The notes under the pieces were generated by a model, which saw only the letters and a program-made list of their open reading frames with translations, searched no databases and was not told the DNA's origin. This document shows, in pieces, positions 2,195 to 39,027 of a DNA stretch of 40,465 bases. This DNA is from Pseudomonadota bacterium (lineage in GTDB: Bacteria > Bdellovibrionota_B > Oligoflexia > Oligoflexales > CAIYRB01): contig JANOTL010000174.1 in assembly GCA_031416315.1 (NCBI GenBank), forward strand, positions 1 to 40,465, in the 5' to 3' direction. A program made the position numbers and the translations under genes. Position 1 is the stretch's first letter. Each line of letters starts with the position of its first letter.

Positions 2195-4432
2195 ATGCGC
2201 CTGCATACCAAAATTGCGCGCTTCGCCTTCGCGACCGCGTGCCTCGCGCTCGTCCAACTCGCCGCTTGCAAGCAGGTCGAGACCTCGGCGACGAAGTCGT
2301 TCATCGGCCTCGAAGCCGGCCAAGACGGCGAGATCCGCAAGTCGAACAGCCCGATCTTCCTAGCGCTGTCGGATTGGTTCCAGAAGTTCAAGATGAACTC
2401 GACCGCGAAGGCGGCCCCCGGCATCCGCACCAACGCCGCCGGCCTGCAGACGAGCGTGCCGTCGGAGTTCCGGAAGCTCATCACCAACTATCTCGAAGTG
2501 CAGCTGAAGCGCACCGACGAGCTCGTCGCGGCGCTCGACGGCAAGCAGTTCCCCCGCGTCCGCGCGCTCCTCGACCTCGAGACGAAGGAGATGAAGGACA
2601 TCGCGCTGGTCATGATCATGGACGGCTACACGCCGGTGACCGACGATCTTTTGGCCCGCTTCATGGCCGCTGCCCGGAAGAAGGGCGACTTCGTCGACAC
2701 CTTCGCCGCCACCGGCTTCCTCGACCGCCTCCTCGCGGTGAGCAACGTGCCGACGCTCGTGAACGACATCGAAAAGCAACGCCTCGCCTACCTCGAGGCG
2801 CTCGACACGCGCTACCTCGGCAACGACAAGTCGCTGGCCGATTTCGCCGCCTTCCTGAAGACGACGCGCGGCACGATCGTTACCATGATCGACGCGATGC
2901 AAGGCGGCGCGGGCTTGGCCCTCGCCGAAGGCGCCGAGGTCTCGGGCCCCGCGGCCGTGCTCGCAGCCTTCGCCCAGTCCGGCTCGAAGAAGCTGCGGGA
3001 CGAAGCGACCGCCCGCCGAAAAGTCATTGAGATCCGCCGCCAACAGGCCGCTAAGCGCCGCGGCGCGGGCTTGGGCCTCAACGAAACCGTCTTCGACCCG
3101 ACCGCCGGCGCCGGCGGCGCTCGCGCGGCAACCGGCGCGACCGGCGCGGCTCCCGCGACTCCGCCCGCCGCTGACGGCGCTGCCGTCGCCGCCGCCGTGC
3201 AGAGCACGCCGTCGAAGGCCGACGACGTCCTCGCCTTCCCCAACCTGGTCGCGCCGCAAGGCTCGTCGCCGCTCGACGAGATCACCGACATCCAGGAGCC
3301 GGCCGCGGCGATCACCAAAGAAGAGACCGCCGACGGCAAAGTCTCCGCGTCTGAAGGCACCGTCGCCCCGGGCGGCGGGCCCGCCCCGGGTCCTACCCCA
3401 GGACAGGCCGTCAGCGCCGCTGGCGCCGGCGCCCCGGGCGGGACGACGCAGCCGGCGGATCCTGCGAACTCGCTCGTCGACCTCCTCGCGCTCTTCAAGG
3501 GCGCCGGCCTCACCGACAACGAAGGCAACTCCCGCAAGACGAAGCTGCTCGCGGCGCCCCTCGTCGACTGCAATCAGTACAAGCTCAAGGGCAAGGGCCT
3601 CGTCGAGTGCCACCGTTACGCCGGATTCGCCAATTTGAACCTCAACAACACCGCGCCGCGTCCCACCGGCCCCGGCATGCGCGGCCTCGGCCTCACGCTA
3701 GACATTCCGGAGGCGACCTTGGCCCTCGGCCGGAACGCGCTCGTCGGCGGCGAGGCGTCCGAGAGCGGCGACGGCGCCACCCGCGCCGGACAGATCAAGC
3801 AGCAAGGATCGATCGGCTCCTGCTCGGTGCAAGCCTCGACGCTCGCCGGCGAGATCGCCGGCATCGGCGAAGGCATCAACCTCCGCGCGGGCGGCTCCGG
3901 CTTGGCCGGTGAGAGCTGGCCGTTGACGGGCGACGCCGTCAACAGCGTGTTCAGCTCAATCCAAGGCGAGGAAGCGACGTTGGAAGGCGCGATGCGTACG
4001 CTGCGCCAGCTTACTTCAGACAAGTTCAACATGCCGGACGACGAAGAGTTGCGCATCAACGGCTGGGACGACGCCATCACCTGCCTCGGCAACGGCCACC
4101 CGGTGCTCGTCGGCGTGACCATCGACATGGCCACCTGGACGTCCGGCGGCGGCGGCGCCGAGTTCGGCCTCACCGAGAGTGCCTCGATCGACGACATCGG
4201 CCGCCCGCGCTCGAACGGTCGCGGCTTGGGCCTCGCCGGTGGCGGCGGTCAGCTCACGTGCTCGCAAGCCAACGGTCACGCCGTCGTCGGCGTCGGCTAC
4301 GACTCCGAGAAAAACATCATGATCGCCAACTCCTGGGGCGCCAACTGGAACGGCAAAGGCGTCGGCCGCGTCATGCGCAACTCGTGCGAGAGCGCGCTCT
4401 TCGCGTTCTGCATCAAGCTGACGAAAAAATAA
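2195..4432 (+). CDS. Lipoprotein with C-terminal papain-like (C1) cysteine peptidase domain
   Basis: Lipobox LAAC. QQGSIGSC (Cys codon 3821), GHAVVGVGYD (His 4277) and IANSWGANW (Asn 4328) give the papain triad. Ala/Pro/Gly-rich linker in the middle. Confidence 0.8.
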   Translation: MRLHTKIARFAFATACLALVQLAACKQVETSATKSFIGLEAGQDGEIRKSNSPIFLALSDWFQKFKMNSTAKAAPGIRTNAAGLQTSVPSEFRKLITNYLEVQLKRTDELVAALDGKQFPRVRALLDLETKEMKDIALVMIMDGYTPVTDDLLARFMAAARKKGDFVDTFAATGFLDRLLAVSNVPTLVNDIEKQRLAYLEALDTRYLGNDKSLADFAAFLKTTRGTIVTMIDAMQGGAGLALAEGAEVSGPAAVLAAFAQSGSKKLRDEATARRKVIEIRRQQAAKRRGAGLGLNETVFDPTAGAGGARAATGATGAAPATPPAADGAAVAAAVQSTPSKADDVLAFPNLVAPQGSSPLDEITDIQEPAAAITKEETADGKVSASEGTVAPGGGPAPGPTPGQAVSAAGAGAPGGTTQPADPANSLVDLLALFKGAGLTDNEGNSRKTKLLAAPLVDCNQYKLKGKGLVECHRYAGFANLNLNNTAPRPTGPGMRGLGLTLDIPEATLALGRNALVGGEASESGDGATRAGQIKQQGSIGSCSVQASTLAGEIAGIGEGINLRAGGSGLAGESWPLTGDAVNSVFSSIQGEEATLEGAMRTLRQLTSDKFNMPDDEELRINGWDDAITCLGNGHPVLVGVTIDMATWTSGGGGAEFGLTESASIDDIGRPRSNGRGLGLAGGGGQLTCSQANGHAVVGVGYDSEKNIMIANSWGANWNGKGVGRVMRNSCESALFAFCIKLTKK

Positions 4433-4449: not shown

Positions 4450-5538
4450 GTGACGGTGAAGCGGTCCAAGGTCTTCCTCGCGTCACGGCTCCTGGCGCTC
4501 GCGGTAATGATGGCAGGTTGCGGCGGCGAGGAGGGAGCGGGCGGCGCCTTCCCCGCCGGCACCGATGCGCCGAGCCCCGGACCTTTGCCCGCAGGCCCCG
4601 GTGGCGCGACGGGCGCCGGCAACGGCACGGCCGGCGCCTCGGGCCCGAGCGGCACGCCGCCGCCGTCCCCGGCGCCCAGGCCGGCGCCTGGCAGCGGCGA
4701 CGCGCTCCCCGACACCGAGACGTTCCCGAGCGGCGTCTACTACGCGGCCCCCGGCGCGGCCTTGACCCTGGTCGGCGCTGGCACGATCCCGGCGCACCTC
4801 GGCGTCGAAGGCGGCTTCGACGTCGGCGTCGCGACGTACGTCACCGTCGAGACGCCGGCGGCGGGCGACGATCCGCAGCGGCTGGTCCTCGCGTCGCGCG
4901 ACGGCCGCATGCGGCGCACGATCGTTCTGGACGGCGTCTTCGCGGCGGCGCGTCCGGCGCTGTCTCCCGACGAGAGCCTCGTCGTCTTCGAGGCCCGCGC
5001 GGCGGCGAATCGGGGCATGGACGAAGATTTCGACCTGTGGTCGATGGATCTCACGACGGCCGAAGGCACCGGCACGATGCCGAAGCGCCTCACGTCGAGC
5101 CCGAAGAACGAGCGCGGCGCGAGCTGGATGGCGCTCACGCGGCGCATCGCGTATGCGGCGAGCGATGCAGCGGGCGGCGAAATCCACCTCTATGACGTGC
5201 CCTCAGGAAAAGACCTGCTGACCATTCCCGGCGTCGGAAAGATCGCGCGCGTCGCGGTCGCTCCGGACGATACCGAGATCTTCGCACCCGAGGCGTTGCG
5301 CGGCTACGATGCCGTCAGCGGCGCGCTGACCCGCGATCTGACCGGCAAGGTGACGCAGCCGGTGGTCGACGGCGTCTACGGGATGTCTGGAGCGGAGCTC
5401 TTCCTCGAAGCCCGCGTCTCGGGCGTCGCCGGCGATGCCTCCGTCCTCCTCGAGGTCCTCTTGGACGGCAGCAAAGTCACGGCCGTGAGCCCCGCGTTGA
5501 CGCCGGCGCAGGCCTTGTCGCCGAAGCGGCGGCCCTGA
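4450..5538 (+). CDS. Lipoprotein with TolB/PD40-like beta-propeller repeats
   Basis: GTG start at 4450 (or 4456); lipobox MAGC; Pro/Gly linker; PALSPDESLVVF, DLWSMD, RLT and RIAYA repeats. Confidence 0.7.
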   Translation: MTVKRSKVFLASRLLALAVMMAGCGGEEGAGGAFPAGTDAPSPGPLPAGPGGATGAGNGTAGASGPSGTPPPSPAPRPAPGSGDALPDTETFPSGVYYAAPGAALTLVGAGTIPAHLGVEGGFDVGVATYVTVETPAAGDDPQRLVLASRDGRMRRTIVLDGVFAAARPALSPDESLVVFEARAAANRGMDEDFDLWSMDLTTAEGTGTMPKRLTSSPKNERGASWMALTRRIAYAASDAAGGEIHLYDVPSGKDLLTIPGVGKIARVAVAPDDTEIFAPEALRGYDAVSGALTRDLTGKVTQPVVDGVYGMSGAELFLEARVSGVAGDASVLLEVLLDGSKVTAVSPALTPAQALSPKRRP

Positions 5539-5550
5539 GCGAGGCGGACG

Positions 5551-6909
5551 TCAGTCGCCGCGCAAGATAGCCGCAGCCTTCTTCCGGAACGCCAAAGCCC
5601 GCGCCCTCCCATCCCGGTTCGGCGACGCCATCGAGGCCGCGCGCACGGCGGCGCCGATGTCCAGCATGCCGCCGACGCGGACATTCAGCTCGCTCGTGGC
5701 GCGCGTTCGCTGCAGGATCGTGCGCACCTCCCAGGGCGTCAGGTCGCGGTTCGCAGAGAGCATCAAGGCGACGGCCGCGCCGACCTGCGCCGCGGCGCCG
5801 GTGGTGCCGCCGAACGCGTCGATGCGGCCGTCCGGACCGTAAAGGGTGCGGAGATTCTCGCCGAAGGCGGAGACGGTGACGCGCGGGCCAAAGTTCGAGT
5901 AGTTGGCGGCACGGCCGTTCTGGCGCAGGGCGCCGACGATGATCGAGCCGGAGTCGTGGCGCTCTTCGGTGACGAGCTCGACCGAGGCGTTGCCGGCGGC
6001 GGAGACGACGCTGATGCCGGACTCGACGGCGAGCTCGATGGCCTCGCGCGTGCCGGCGAAGGTTTCGGAGGAGCCGGCGGAGGTCTGATTCTGCACGACG
6101 ATGACATCGACGTCGCCCAGGCGGACGGCGTGCAGGATGCAGCGGGCGGTCGCTTCCTCTTTGTCGACGTCGTCGACGTCGCGATCGTAATTGAAGTTTT
6201 GCAGCGGCACGAGCTTCGCTTCGTAAGCGAGGCCGTTCGTCCCCGCGCCGTCGCGCACGCCCGTCATGATCGCGGCGACCGCCGTGCCGTGGAAGACGAA
6301 TGGACCGTGGTCGACGTTCAAGGGATCGCCGAGGTCGGAGAAGTCGTAGCGGCGCTCGATCATCATATTCGGACCGAGGTCGGGCTCCTCGAGGAAAAAG
6401 CCGGTGTCGCAGTCGGCGATGGTGACGCCGCGGCCAGTCCCGTAGCGCCAGGCCTCGGGCGCCTTCAGCGCGGGGACCCACCACTGGTCGGCGAGGACGG
6501 GATCCATCGGCGTTTCCGCCGGCGGCGGGACCGCGGCGTCAGCTTCGGTCACGCCCAAAGTCGTGCCGGTGATCTTGCCGTCACGGCCCAAGGTCGAGAA
6601 AGGCGGTACGGCGGGACCGAGCTTGCCGAGGTAGCCGGTCGAGGCCGCGATCTTCGTGGCATCTTGATGCGGGTCGAGGCGCACACGGTAGAGGTTGAGG
6701 AGGTCGACCCTGCCGCCCGAGAGCTCGCGAAGATTCTGCCGCTGATCGCGCGTGAGGCCGAAGCGGACGAGCTCGCCGTCGTGGCTAGCGACGAGGGCGC
6801 GCGTCTCGGCATCGCCGATGCGAACGACGTGAGTCTCGGCGCGGGGGGCGGCGGCGGGACCGGCGGCAAGGAGGCAAAGTGCGAACGGCACGACGTAAAA
6901 TCGACGCAT
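5551..6909 (-). CDS. Secreted S8 subtilisin-like peptidase homologue (catalytic Ser position is Thr)
   Basis: Signal peptide; GVTIADCDTG (Asp), HGTAVA (His), SAAGN (oxyanion Asn), YSNFG; FGGTTGAA where GTS is expected. Confidence 0.85.
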   Translation of the reverse strand: MRRFYVVPFALCLLAAGPAAAPRAETHVVRIGDAETRALVASHDGELVRFGLTRDQRQNLRELSGGRVDLLNLYRVRLDPHQDATKIAASTGYLGKLGPAVPPFSTLGRDGKITGTTLGVTEADAAVPPPAETPMDPVLADQWWVPALKAPEAWRYGTGRGVTIADCDTGFFLEEPDLGPNMMIERRYDFSDLGDPLNVDHGPFVFHGTAVAAIMTGVRDGAGTNGLAYEAKLVPLQNFNYDRDVDDVDKEEATARCILHAVRLGDVDVIVVQNQTSAGSSETFAGTREAIELAVESGISVVSAAGNASVELVTEERHDSGSIIVGALRQNGRAANYSNFGPRVTVSAFGENLRTLYGPDGRIDAFGGTTGAAAQVGAAVALMLSANRDLTPWEVRTILQRTRATSELNVRVGGMLDIGAAVRAASMASPNRDGRARALAFRKKAAAILRGD

Positions 6910-36339: not shown

Positions 36340-39027
36340 ATGCGTTCGTCGTCGATCCTCGTCCTCGCGGTCACGCTCAGCTTCGCCGCATGCAAATCCG
36401 AGGATGACGACCGTCCTTCGTCGTCGCCAAAGCCCGCTGTGACCACGACGCCACCGCCCGGAGGCGCGTCCTCGACTGAGACTTCACCCGTCGCGACCAT
36501 CGGGACGCTTTCGTTCAGCATCGAAGGGCAGGTTACCCCGATGGAAGGGCTCGGGCCGCAGTCCGCGGCCAATGCCGCCATCGCCGTCGCAGGCCATCCC
36601 GAGCTCGCGACGACGACCGATGCCCAAGGTCGATTCGGGATCACCGCGCAACCTGGCGTCGTCGACATCTACGTGACCGCCGCGGACGGCGCGGCGCTTA
36701 CGGAAAGTCCGGCCGCGTACGGGCTCAAGTTCGGTAAGGTCGTCGTCAAAGCCGGGGAAAAAACCGACCTCGGCGTCAACGCGTTGAAGGCGACGGGCGC
36801 CGTCACGGGCGACGTCCGCTTTCTCGATCCGAGCCAATCGGCCCCGCTCGTCGGCACGGATGTCTACGTCCCGGGCACGCAGCTCATCGCCAAAACTGAC
36901 GACGCCGGCAACTTCGCGCTCGCCGGCATGCCCGTCGGCGAATACGAGCTACAGATAGAGCGCACGGGCTTCGCCCCGGTCCGGTTGAAGGGCGTAGCCG
37001 TGGCGGAAGGGGCGACGACGCCGCTCCCGGCGGTGCTGCTCTCGGTGTCGGGCGGGCCCGAAGGCGCCCTCGCAGTGACCGCGACGAGCACGCCGACGAT
37101 CGGCGGCAAGGCCGTCAAGGTCTCGAATGCTCACAAGGTGCAGCTCGCGCTCGCCTACAACAGCGAGGCGGCGTTGATGAAAATCGCCGACGAGCCGAGC
37201 TTCCTCGACAAGAAGTGGGAGAGCGTGGCGCCTGCTTACGAATGGACTTTCGATTCGGACGGTCGCAAGACGCTCTACGTCAAGTTCTCCGATTTGAACG
37301 GTCTCGAGAGCTCGCCGTACGCCGACGTCGTCGTCGTCGACACCGAAGCGCCGGCCTTGGGCGAAGTGAAAATCTTGAACGGCTGGGCGGTTGCTGCGAA
37401 GCCCGAGGTGTTTGTCGACGCGCTCGCAACGGACGCAGGAACAGGCATCGCCGAGGTCGCCTATGCCTTTGCCGAGGGCGACCTTGCGGCGGCGAGCTGG
37501 AGCGCTTTCGCGCCGCGGCTCTTTCTAAGCTTGCCGGCCGCCGCGGGCCCGAAACGTCTTTACGTCAAAGTTCGCGACCACGTTGGTCGCGAGTCGAACG
37601 TCGCCGCCGACTCGATCAACCTCGGGACGATGACCGAGATCTTGCCCACCACTTATCCAGGCGATCTCAAGCTCACGGCCGCGCAAAGCCCGTACAACCT
37701 ACGAGGTGCCGCGGTCGTGATGGGCGACCTCACGATCGAACCCGGCGTAACCTTCTACTTCCATAGCACCGCGTCGACTGACGGCGTCGACGTGCGCGGC
37801 AAAATTATGGCGATCGGCGAAGCCACTGCGGGTAAGAGTATCACCTTTGACCTCAACGCCGCCGTCTCTTGCTCGATCTCGCCTGGTAGGATTCTCAACA
37901 TCAACGCGGCGCCCGGCACCAGCGAAGGCACCCGGATCGAGCACGCGAGCTTCCGGCGCATGAGCTTGTCGCTGAACGGAGGCCGGGTCGCGCGCTCCAG
38001 TTTCGACGGCGACTTCGACGGCTGTCCTGGCGTGCCGGGCGGCATCATCGAAAAGCACGGGTTCGACGACCTGACGGTCACGGAGAACACCTTTACGCAC
38101 TGGGGCAACGCGCTTTACGTCAGGTCCGGCGTCGGCAACACGCGTTTCGTCGGCAACTCCGGAACCGTCGCCGCGGCGCTCGCGCAGGACCGTGACGCGA
38201 CCGGGACCACATATACCGGCAACACGCTCACGAACGATTTCTACGCGGGCCTCGGCGGCGGGATGATCAGCGTCACAAGTGGCGCGATGGACTTCGCGAG
38301 CAACACATTTTCGACCTTGGGGACCGCAGTCTACGGAAACTCCGCCGAGGACGTGACCGTCTCCGGCGTTCACTTCAAGAGCTGCGCGAACGTCGTGGTG
38401 AATGAGAGCTATGAGCCGGTCGGCAAGCTCACGATCACGAACTCACGGTTTGACGCGTGCGCTAAGGGGATCACCGCAGCACTCTCCCCGTACCAAGGCG
38501 CGGTCGAGATCGACCGCTCCGACGTCAACGTCAGCACGGCCTTGGCGTCCGCGATCACGACCCAGCCGTCGTCGAGCTGGACCTTCCGCAACAGCGAGTT
38601 GAAGTGTGGCTTCCCCCTGCAAGCGAGCTATTGCGACCTCCTACTTCGTGATGCCAGCGGCGGCGCTCCTTCGATTCTCGAGAACAACAGCAGCACTCCG
38701 TACATCGACGTCTATCAGCTCATCGGCAACAACATTGACTGTCCGGTCGGCGTGTGCCGCGGCGTCACGCTCCTTAATGGCGCAGCACGGGTATTCTATG
38801 CCCAGGTTACGGGCCCGTTCACAAACAACTACTGGTACGGCCGCTCAGCCGTTTTCGGTTCCAGCTTTACAAGCGACATTCGTATGGCAAATTCGGCCCT
38901 TGGACAGGCCCAGGGGGCAATCCGGGCATTCACCTTCAGCGGCACGGCCATCCCGGATCTCAACGCGACGTTTTCTATCTCGAGCACCTCGGCAGGCGAG
39001 CCAAATGTTGGCGCGGGAGCGCCGTGA
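36340..39027 (+). CDS. Large surface lipoprotein: carboxypeptidase-regulatory-like/Ig-like domains plus right-handed beta-helix
   Basis: AAGGGG RBS; lipobox FAAC; TTTDAQGRF, KTDDAGNFALAGMPVGEY and DTEAP; SPY....GDLTIEPGVT followed by Asn-rich beta-helix repeats. Confidence 0.8.
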   Translation: MRSSSILVLAVTLSFAACKSEDDDRPSSSPKPAVTTTPPPGGASSTETSPVATIGTLSFSIEGQVTPMEGLGPQSAANAAIAVAGHPELATTTDAQGRFGITAQPGVVDIYVTAADGAALTESPAAYGLKFGKVVVKAGEKTDLGVNALKATGAVTGDVRFLDPSQSAPLVGTDVYVPGTQLIAKTDDAGNFALAGMPVGEYELQIERTGFAPVRLKGVAVAEGATTPLPAVLLSVSGGPEGALAVTATSTPTIGGKAVKVSNAHKVQLALAYNSEAALMKIADEPSFLDKKWESVAPAYEWTFDSDGRKTLYVKFSDLNGLESSPYADVVVVDTEAPALGEVKILNGWAVAAKPEVFVDALATDAGTGIAEVAYAFAEGDLAAASWSAFAPRLFLSLPAAAGPKRLYVKVRDHVGRESNVAADSINLGTMTEILPTTYPGDLKLTAAQSPYNLRGAAVVMGDLTIEPGVTFYFHSTASTDGVDVRGKIMAIGEATAGKSITFDLNAAVSCSISPGRILNINAAPGTSEGTRIEHASFRRMSLSLNGGRVARSSFDGDFDGCPGVPGGIIEKHGFDDLTVTENTFTHWGNALYVRSGVGNTRFVGNSGTVAAALAQDRDATGTTYTGNTLTNDFYAGLGGGMISVTSGAMDFASNTFSTLGTAVYGNSAEDVTVSGVHFKSCANVVVNESYEPVGKLTITNSRFDACAKGITAALSPYQGAVEIDRSDVNVSTALASAITTQPSSSWTFRNSELKCGFPLQASYCDLLLRDASGGAPSILENNSSTPYIDVYQLIGNNIDCPVGVCRGVTLLNGAARVFYAQVTGPFTNNYWYGRSAVFGSSFTSDIRMANSALGQAQGAIRAFTFSGTAIPDLNATFSISSTSAGEPNVGAGAP

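Follow-up and report, generated by a model that had tools for sequence, protein, structure and literature searches.

A short leucine-centred motif recurs in the lipoproteins of the genome under study (G000), where it is real and specific to this protein class; as judged from alignments, it is also positionally conserved across the bacterial class. This class is presumably Oligoflexia (Bdellovibrionota), since class and phylum coincide at 131 genomes and TIGR02147 genes are present. With a probability of about 0.55, we read it as a class-wide, Leu-directed lipoprotein processing code, at which a trans-acting envelope protease would cut. The motif is apparently undescribed so far, as no description of it was found in the open-access literature.

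The motif was noticed in a papain-like lipoprotein encoded in the window, i.e. the whole stretch of 40,465 nucleotides that was analysed (contig C174 of G000), and the preliminary description had listed seven similar hexamers in this protein and an eighth, GAALTE, in an unrelated lipoprotein. Re-reading of the sequence located all of them (Table 1), three of the seven lying inside the C1 domain between Cys543 and His695 as described. The C-terminal third of the protein matches Pfam PF00112 (C1A peptidase) above cut-off, the profile of its family matches xylellain (3ois) with an E-value of 4.7e-22, and the top Foldseek matches of its model were C1A enzymes with the papain fold; no C80 domain match was obtained for the protein. 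The catalytic set stands in papain order and is invariant in 32/32 family members, and the predicted lipidated Cys25 is conserved in at least 90% of the 32 aligned sequences. Searches of Pfam, NCBIfam and Atlas gave no match for the helical module. A lipoprotein-like gene lies directly 3' of the ORF (4450-5538, + strand; no match in Pfam and NCBIfam), and nearby a secreted S8 subtilase is encoded (5551-6909, - strand) with an apparent Thr at the catalytic-Ser position (GGTTGAAA), which, judged against the canonical motif, may be inactive or unusual.

Table 1. Features of the papain-like lipoprotein and of the related motif elsewhere in the window (aa, residue numbers; homologue counts refer to the aligned family)
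Feature	Positions	Strand	Remarks
Lipoprotein ORF, 745 aa	2195..4432	+	helical module at the N-terminus, then a low-complexity linker and a papain-like (C1A) zymogen
Lipoprotein signal peptide, predicted lipidated Cys25	2195..2269	+	lipobox by regex
Helical module, aa ~36-290	2300..3064	+	no named family
Motif 1 GLALAE, aa 240-245	2912..2929	+	coil between helices, pLDDT about 67; kept in 15/31 homologues
Motif 2 GLGLNE, aa 292-297	3068..3085	+	start of disordered linker; 0/31 homologues, private to this protein
Ala/Gly/Pro-rich disordered linker, aa 293-425	3071..3469	+	AlphaFold model
Motif 3 GAGLTD, aa 436-441	3500..3517	+	precedes pro-segment; kept in 12/31 homologues
Short conserved pro-segment with C459, C472, R474	3527..3682	+	putative propeptide; alignment, AlphaFold model
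Motif 4 GLGLTL, aa 497-502	3683..3700	+	probable pro/mature boundary; kept in 14/31 homologues
C1A catalytic domain	3695..4429	+	Q537 (3803), C543 (3821), H695 (4277), N712 (4328)
Motif 5 GSGLAG, aa 567-572	3893..3910	+	weak, in inserted loop; 1/31 homologues
Motif 6 EFGLTE, aa 656-661	4160..4177	+	disordered 652-684; sub-group only, 3/31 homologues
Motif 7 GLGLAG, aa 677-682	4223..4240	+	6/31 homologues, level of top control windows
GAALTE in unrelated carboxypeptidase-regulatory-like lipoprotein	36688..36705	+	ORF ends 39027

A pattern fitted post hoc to the seven hexamers gave eight matches in the protein, compared with 0.1 on average and two at most in 5000 shuffles. The regular expression proposed in the preliminary description fits just two of the seven, although even this is above chance (P=0.0008). 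The seven differ in conservation: sites 240, 436 and 497 are conserved, sites 292 and 567 are private and sites 656 and 677 are partially kept. In the AlphaFold model (mean pLDDT 68.6; segments with pLDDT<50 making up 227/745 residues) all seven are predicted to lie in coil or at the end of a helix, with six of them overlapping segments with pLDDT<50, in line with the expectation that they sit in disordered loops. Regarding the flanks, said to be Gly-rich or basic upstream and acidic downstream, the sole clear enrichment genome-wide was that of Gly two residues ahead of the hexamer (3.4-fold); the basic (0.124 upstream against a background of 0.095) and acidic (0.131 downstream against 0.123) preferences are weak.

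We were interested whether the motif is enriched in the proteome of G000 (6.36 Mb, 93% complete; 5,444 genes called). The regular expression fixed beforehand in the preliminary description, which had suggested a comparison of exported and cytoplasmic proteins, gave 22 matches in lipoproteins versus 6.2 after shuffling; for the other classes the ratios were 0.9-1.3, all classes (lipoprotein, SP1, TM, cytoplasmic) being assigned by our own heuristics. With G-[LFA]-x-L-[ASTNQ]-[DEG], a form widened after matches had been seen, 59 sites were detected in 50/725 predicted lipoproteins against 17.9±4.6 in 20-residue local shuffles, so that about one third of these matches is expected by chance; the same expression gave 61 vs 52.3 in cytoplasmic, 18 vs 13.2 in SP1 and 25 vs 18.9 in TM proteins. 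The enrichment in G000 is confined to lipoproteins, the other classes being without clear excess. The 50 motif-bearing lipoproteins span 44 BLAST-unrelated families and include metallopeptidase, hydrolase, lectin and PA14 proteins as well as many without a family. When the window contig was left out, G[LFA][GASRK]L[ASTN][DE] gave 26 matches and ranked joint first among 720 column orders (mean 7.6). When a matrix was trained on one half of the contigs and applied at >14 bits to what had been held out, each of the two lipoprotein sets contained 10 matches (1.0 and 0.2 after shuffling), and the two cytoplasmic sets contained 2 (1.4 after shuffling) and 3 (2.4). When 4/5-mers were tested for enrichment without bias, linker composition prevailed and the top 80 did not include the motif.

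We regard it as extremely improbable that the motif is a site for a prepilin peptidase or signal peptidase, or that it goes back to the in-frame insertion of a DNA repeat. Its register does fit the G↓F-x-L-x-E of the true prepilins of G000, and the genome holds two A24 and two S26 matches (counted together with three C25 and five rhomboid matches); however, a hydrophobic stretch precedes or follows the motif at 0/59 sites, none is N-terminal with a hydrophobic helix next to it, and the sites are internal in exported domains, so that a prepilin or second signal peptide was rejected. The DNA repeat was likewise rejected because synonymous codons vary over 74 motif sites, so that the motif is a signal at the protein level.

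The suggested scan of relatives did not reveal significant enrichment, but was underpowered: in five random samples of 280-400 kb (G065, G084, G023, G125 and G013) with 19-31 lipoproteins each, the strict motif occurred 2, 1, 0, 1 and 0 times (expected 0.6, 0.4, 0, 0.2 and 0.5). As these samples hold few lipoproteins, genome-wide enrichment is shown for G000 alone. A degenerate DNA-pattern scan of 61 genomes yielded mostly off-frame matches or other conserved motifs (30, 20 and 20 loci checked); in G001, 3/11 matches fell into real genes, all three with lipoprotein-like N-termini. GLGLSD of one family (L023) was discarded as a false positive, being a conserved core structural element. The absence of enrichment in these small samples, the degeneracy of the motif and its low-complexity flanks would all suit a compositional or structural by-product of Gly/Ala-rich linkers that has no reader. 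We consider such a by-product very improbable, as the excess was 3- to 10-fold or greater whether measured by local-composition shuffles, by column permutations or in held-out tests, and as in three families Leu recurs at equivalent positions of loops that align poorly in all other respects.

The first of these is the papain-like family itself. A HMMER search led to 63 proteins, and 32 of the 34 with 550-800 aa were aligned; left out were first P0063, a peptidase-only match, and also P0042 and P0046 with their different C-terminal domains. At 20-40% identity, the 32 members contain 26 copies of the strict motif versus 2.0±1.4 in shuffled sequences, and these cluster at sites 240, 436 and 497, while 62 control windows gave a conservation of 1.2 on average and 7 at most among the 31 homologues. 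Several homologues (e.g. P0030, P0039, L009 and L179) are without clear motifs, and the few homologue loci inspected did not show conservation of the neighbouring genes. In 18/32 members a motif lies 12-60 residues ahead of the catalytic Cys, and in 9 of these 18 a hypothetical cut after the motif Leu would place this Cys at residue 25-27, compared with residue 25 in mature cathepsin K (PDB match); in the protein from the window the same cut would place it at 41-43.

Additional information came from G065 (family f17), where zymogen and helical module are encoded by adjacent separate genes, three times and with lipoprotein-type N-termini. In each pair the C1 zymogen gene is followed by the helical-module gene (C4:36135-38098, C12:20589-22412 and C13:44986-46755). 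Since both halves are encoded separately there, the protein from the window is a fusion of two modules, with the point of separation lying between its motifs 1 and 3. The equivalent sites in G065 read ASLVAG, ANLVAG or VSLVSN, and ANLTST or ASLVAS. Elsewhere the helical module is fused to other C-terminal domains, which by their motifs we take to be M28 and C39 peptidases; its occurrence alone or fused to varied domains suggests that it may be a general peptidase partner.

In a second family, DUF4382/MbnP-like lipoproteins found in 30/131 genomes (weak DUF4382 matches in 5/29 members), Phi-x-L follows beta1 in 22/29 members. The AlphaFold model places the motif in the beta1-beta2 loop, predicted as the sole low-confidence loop of the folded domain, and canonical DUF4382 proteins are without this motif-bearing loop. 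The best fold match of the model was MbnP (Z 10.4, rmsd 3.9, 196 aligned), and its similarity to Bacteroides pilins is middling (best Z 6.4, rmsd 3.4, 105 aligned). Genes of this family repeatedly flank TIGR02147 genes class-wide (L137, L140-L145 and L153), in G000 at C153:73114-76622 and C23:12119-14611. In a third family, the Leu motif follows the first strand-like segment in 12/12 homologues with a visible N-terminus (7 Phi-x-L and 5 A-x-L), 4/16 rows having been left out (one without N-terminus and three weak non-homologous matches). This family is represented in f1, f12, f17 and f19 and by a further member in f15, and those from f17 read A-[SK]-L-V. In G065, the sites of two unrelated families have both changed to A-[SN]-L-[VT]; such a parallel change within one lineage, in proteins that are not related, suggests that a common reader acts on them in trans.

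In the mechanism we propose, lipoproteins would be exported first, and the consensus small-[LFM/A]-x-Leu-small-[DEG] in flexible loops would serve as a common cleavage signal for an envelope protease. The cut would likely occur after the second, constant Leu, a position assigned because this Leu is invariant and because of the Cys-25 spacing; P3 would be hydrophobic or Ala, P1' small and P2' acidic or small. In the papain-like lipoprotein, cleavage at sites 240/436 would part the lipid-anchored helical module from the zymogen, and cleavage at site 497 would remove the propeptide and activate the enzyme. In beta-sandwich lipoproteins, opening of the beta1-beta2 loop would free the domain from its lipid-bearing strand. 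Cuts at all seven motifs would leave Cys543 on a piece of 70 residues and His695/Asn712 on another of 65; as cuts within the C1 domain would thus part the catalytic residues, the pieces would have to stay together, and motifs in the catalytic domain would mark nicks in a chain that remains folded instead of released products. The earlier idea that several polypeptides are released from one lipoprotein is thereby reduced to, at best, a two-module split and a propeptide, sites 292 and 567 being unconserved in addition.

The copies inside the catalytic domain, where cutting seems useless, may also be taken as pointing to a non-proteolytic tag, i.e. a short L-x-L beta-strand for docking, be it on a chaperone, a surface translocon or a scaffold, or else a stretch that is covalently modified. 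Alternating hydrophobic residues, multiple copies, restriction to lipoproteins and a resemblance to the L-x-L-A-D with which beta1 ends in canonical DUF4382 proteins would agree with such a tag. We nevertheless consider it unlikely, although worth keeping in view, as the papain pro/mature boundary and the natural fission region are the very positions predicted for a cut site, and as Leu alone is invariant and no invariant residue suits common modifications. The function as a cleavage code is well motivated, and the suggestion of a recurring processing signal gains from the lipoprotein-specific enrichment, the positional conservation, the loop location, the pro/mature position and the natural gene split; autocatalysis as the general explanation is disfavoured.

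Autocatalysis would make the papain-like enzyme a maturase that cuts its own motifs and those of other lipoproteins. Papain-type enzymes prefer a hydrophobic P2, the Q/C/H/N set is intact in all 32 members, and this lipoprotein holds the most motif copies of any protein in the genome. Yet such a maturase is improbable, because the family is patchy: full-length members occur mainly in f13, f1-g1, f14 and f3, the family is split in f17, it is represented by the C1 part only in 1/22 genomes of f15, and none were found in f7, f10 and f19, absences in these surveys being limited by incomplete genomes. As motif-bearing families occur in these lineages, in genomes where no full-length papain-like member was found, the family was rejected as general reader, although this one lipoprotein may still process itself. 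No motif-reading enzyme was found among the papain-like family, C14 lipoproteins, a clan-CD-like lipoprotein and C80 (PF11713), the last without a match in the 93%-complete G000. The C14 lipoproteins (32/131 genomes) and the clan-CD-like lipoprotein without Pfam match (9/131 genomes) were rejected as too patchy. The C14 metacaspase-like lipoprotein family (L217-L246) is expanded, with up to 12 matches in one genome, and in several members the linker that follows the catalytic Cys contains motif-like sequences. The clan-CD-like lipoprotein (G000:C10:28761-30239, - strand; L214/L347; orthologues L348-L352) contains a tandem short-repeat array between the putative catalytic His and Cys, the unit of which varies by genome (AGESRG, AGDRSG, G[FY]LN[VA]DD, GLNVENP, GLNADI[PV] or SLGGPN); this array is putatively a removable linker or a fused peptide precursor.

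A bolder version, put forward tentatively and at slightly less than even odds, is that the whole class relies on an undescribed Leu-centred code and a dedicated envelope protease that co-evolve, and that in each genome dozens of unrelated lipoproteins are matured, shed or split in this way, which would include the activation of zymogens and the cutting of fused polyproteins into modules encoded separately elsewhere. If true, this would be a general lipoprotein maturation pathway for a barely studied bacterial class and, with its Leu specificity, would parallel the gingipain system; for many hypothetical proteins the mature ends would become predictable, and a new protease with a specificity drifting by lineage would be indicated.

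In the PEXEL system of Plasmodium, a dedicated protease recognizes a motif of x-x-L↓x-acidic geometry with Arg two residues ahead of Leu. The geometry proposed here is the same, but P3 is L/F/M/A and not Arg, and the sites are bacterial, multi-copy and internal. With the C1A papain family (xylellain 3ois, cathepsin K) the window's enzyme shares the Q/C/H/N residues, the fold and the zymogen layout, and differs from other C1A enzymes in being a lipoprotein with an unnamed helical module, a short pro-segment, motif-bearing loops and Ser/Thr/Ala instead of Trp after the catalytic Cys. The C80 domain (CPD) of MARTX and clostridial toxins cuts after Leu with small neighbours in unstructured polyprotein segments (PMC2900308). 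The proposed Leu-directed site likewise has small neighbours and lies in flexible segments, whereas CPD acts in cis in the toxin. In Mycoplasma hyopneumoniae adhesins, the motifs S/T-X-F↓X-D/E and L-X-V↓X-V/A are cleaved (PMC5593965), and these are similarly short motifs with hydrophobic P1 punctuating surface proteins; here the lineage is an unrelated diderm one, 44 unrelated families are concerned and cleavage is putative. Type V pilins are lipoprotein precursors that Rgp cuts at an Arg of the beta1-beta2 loop, behind the anchor strand that bears the lipid (PMC13655056). The DUF4382-like family, in contrast to the protein from the window, resembles this system of Bacteroidetes in the predicted position of its motif in the beta1-beta2 loop, a likeness founded on loop position and a middling fold match, with MbnP as best match instead; the constant residue is Leu, not Arg, and the motif also occurs in helical, peptidase and linker contexts. 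For each of the pilin, prepilin and PEXEL systems, the motif lacks one defining feature.
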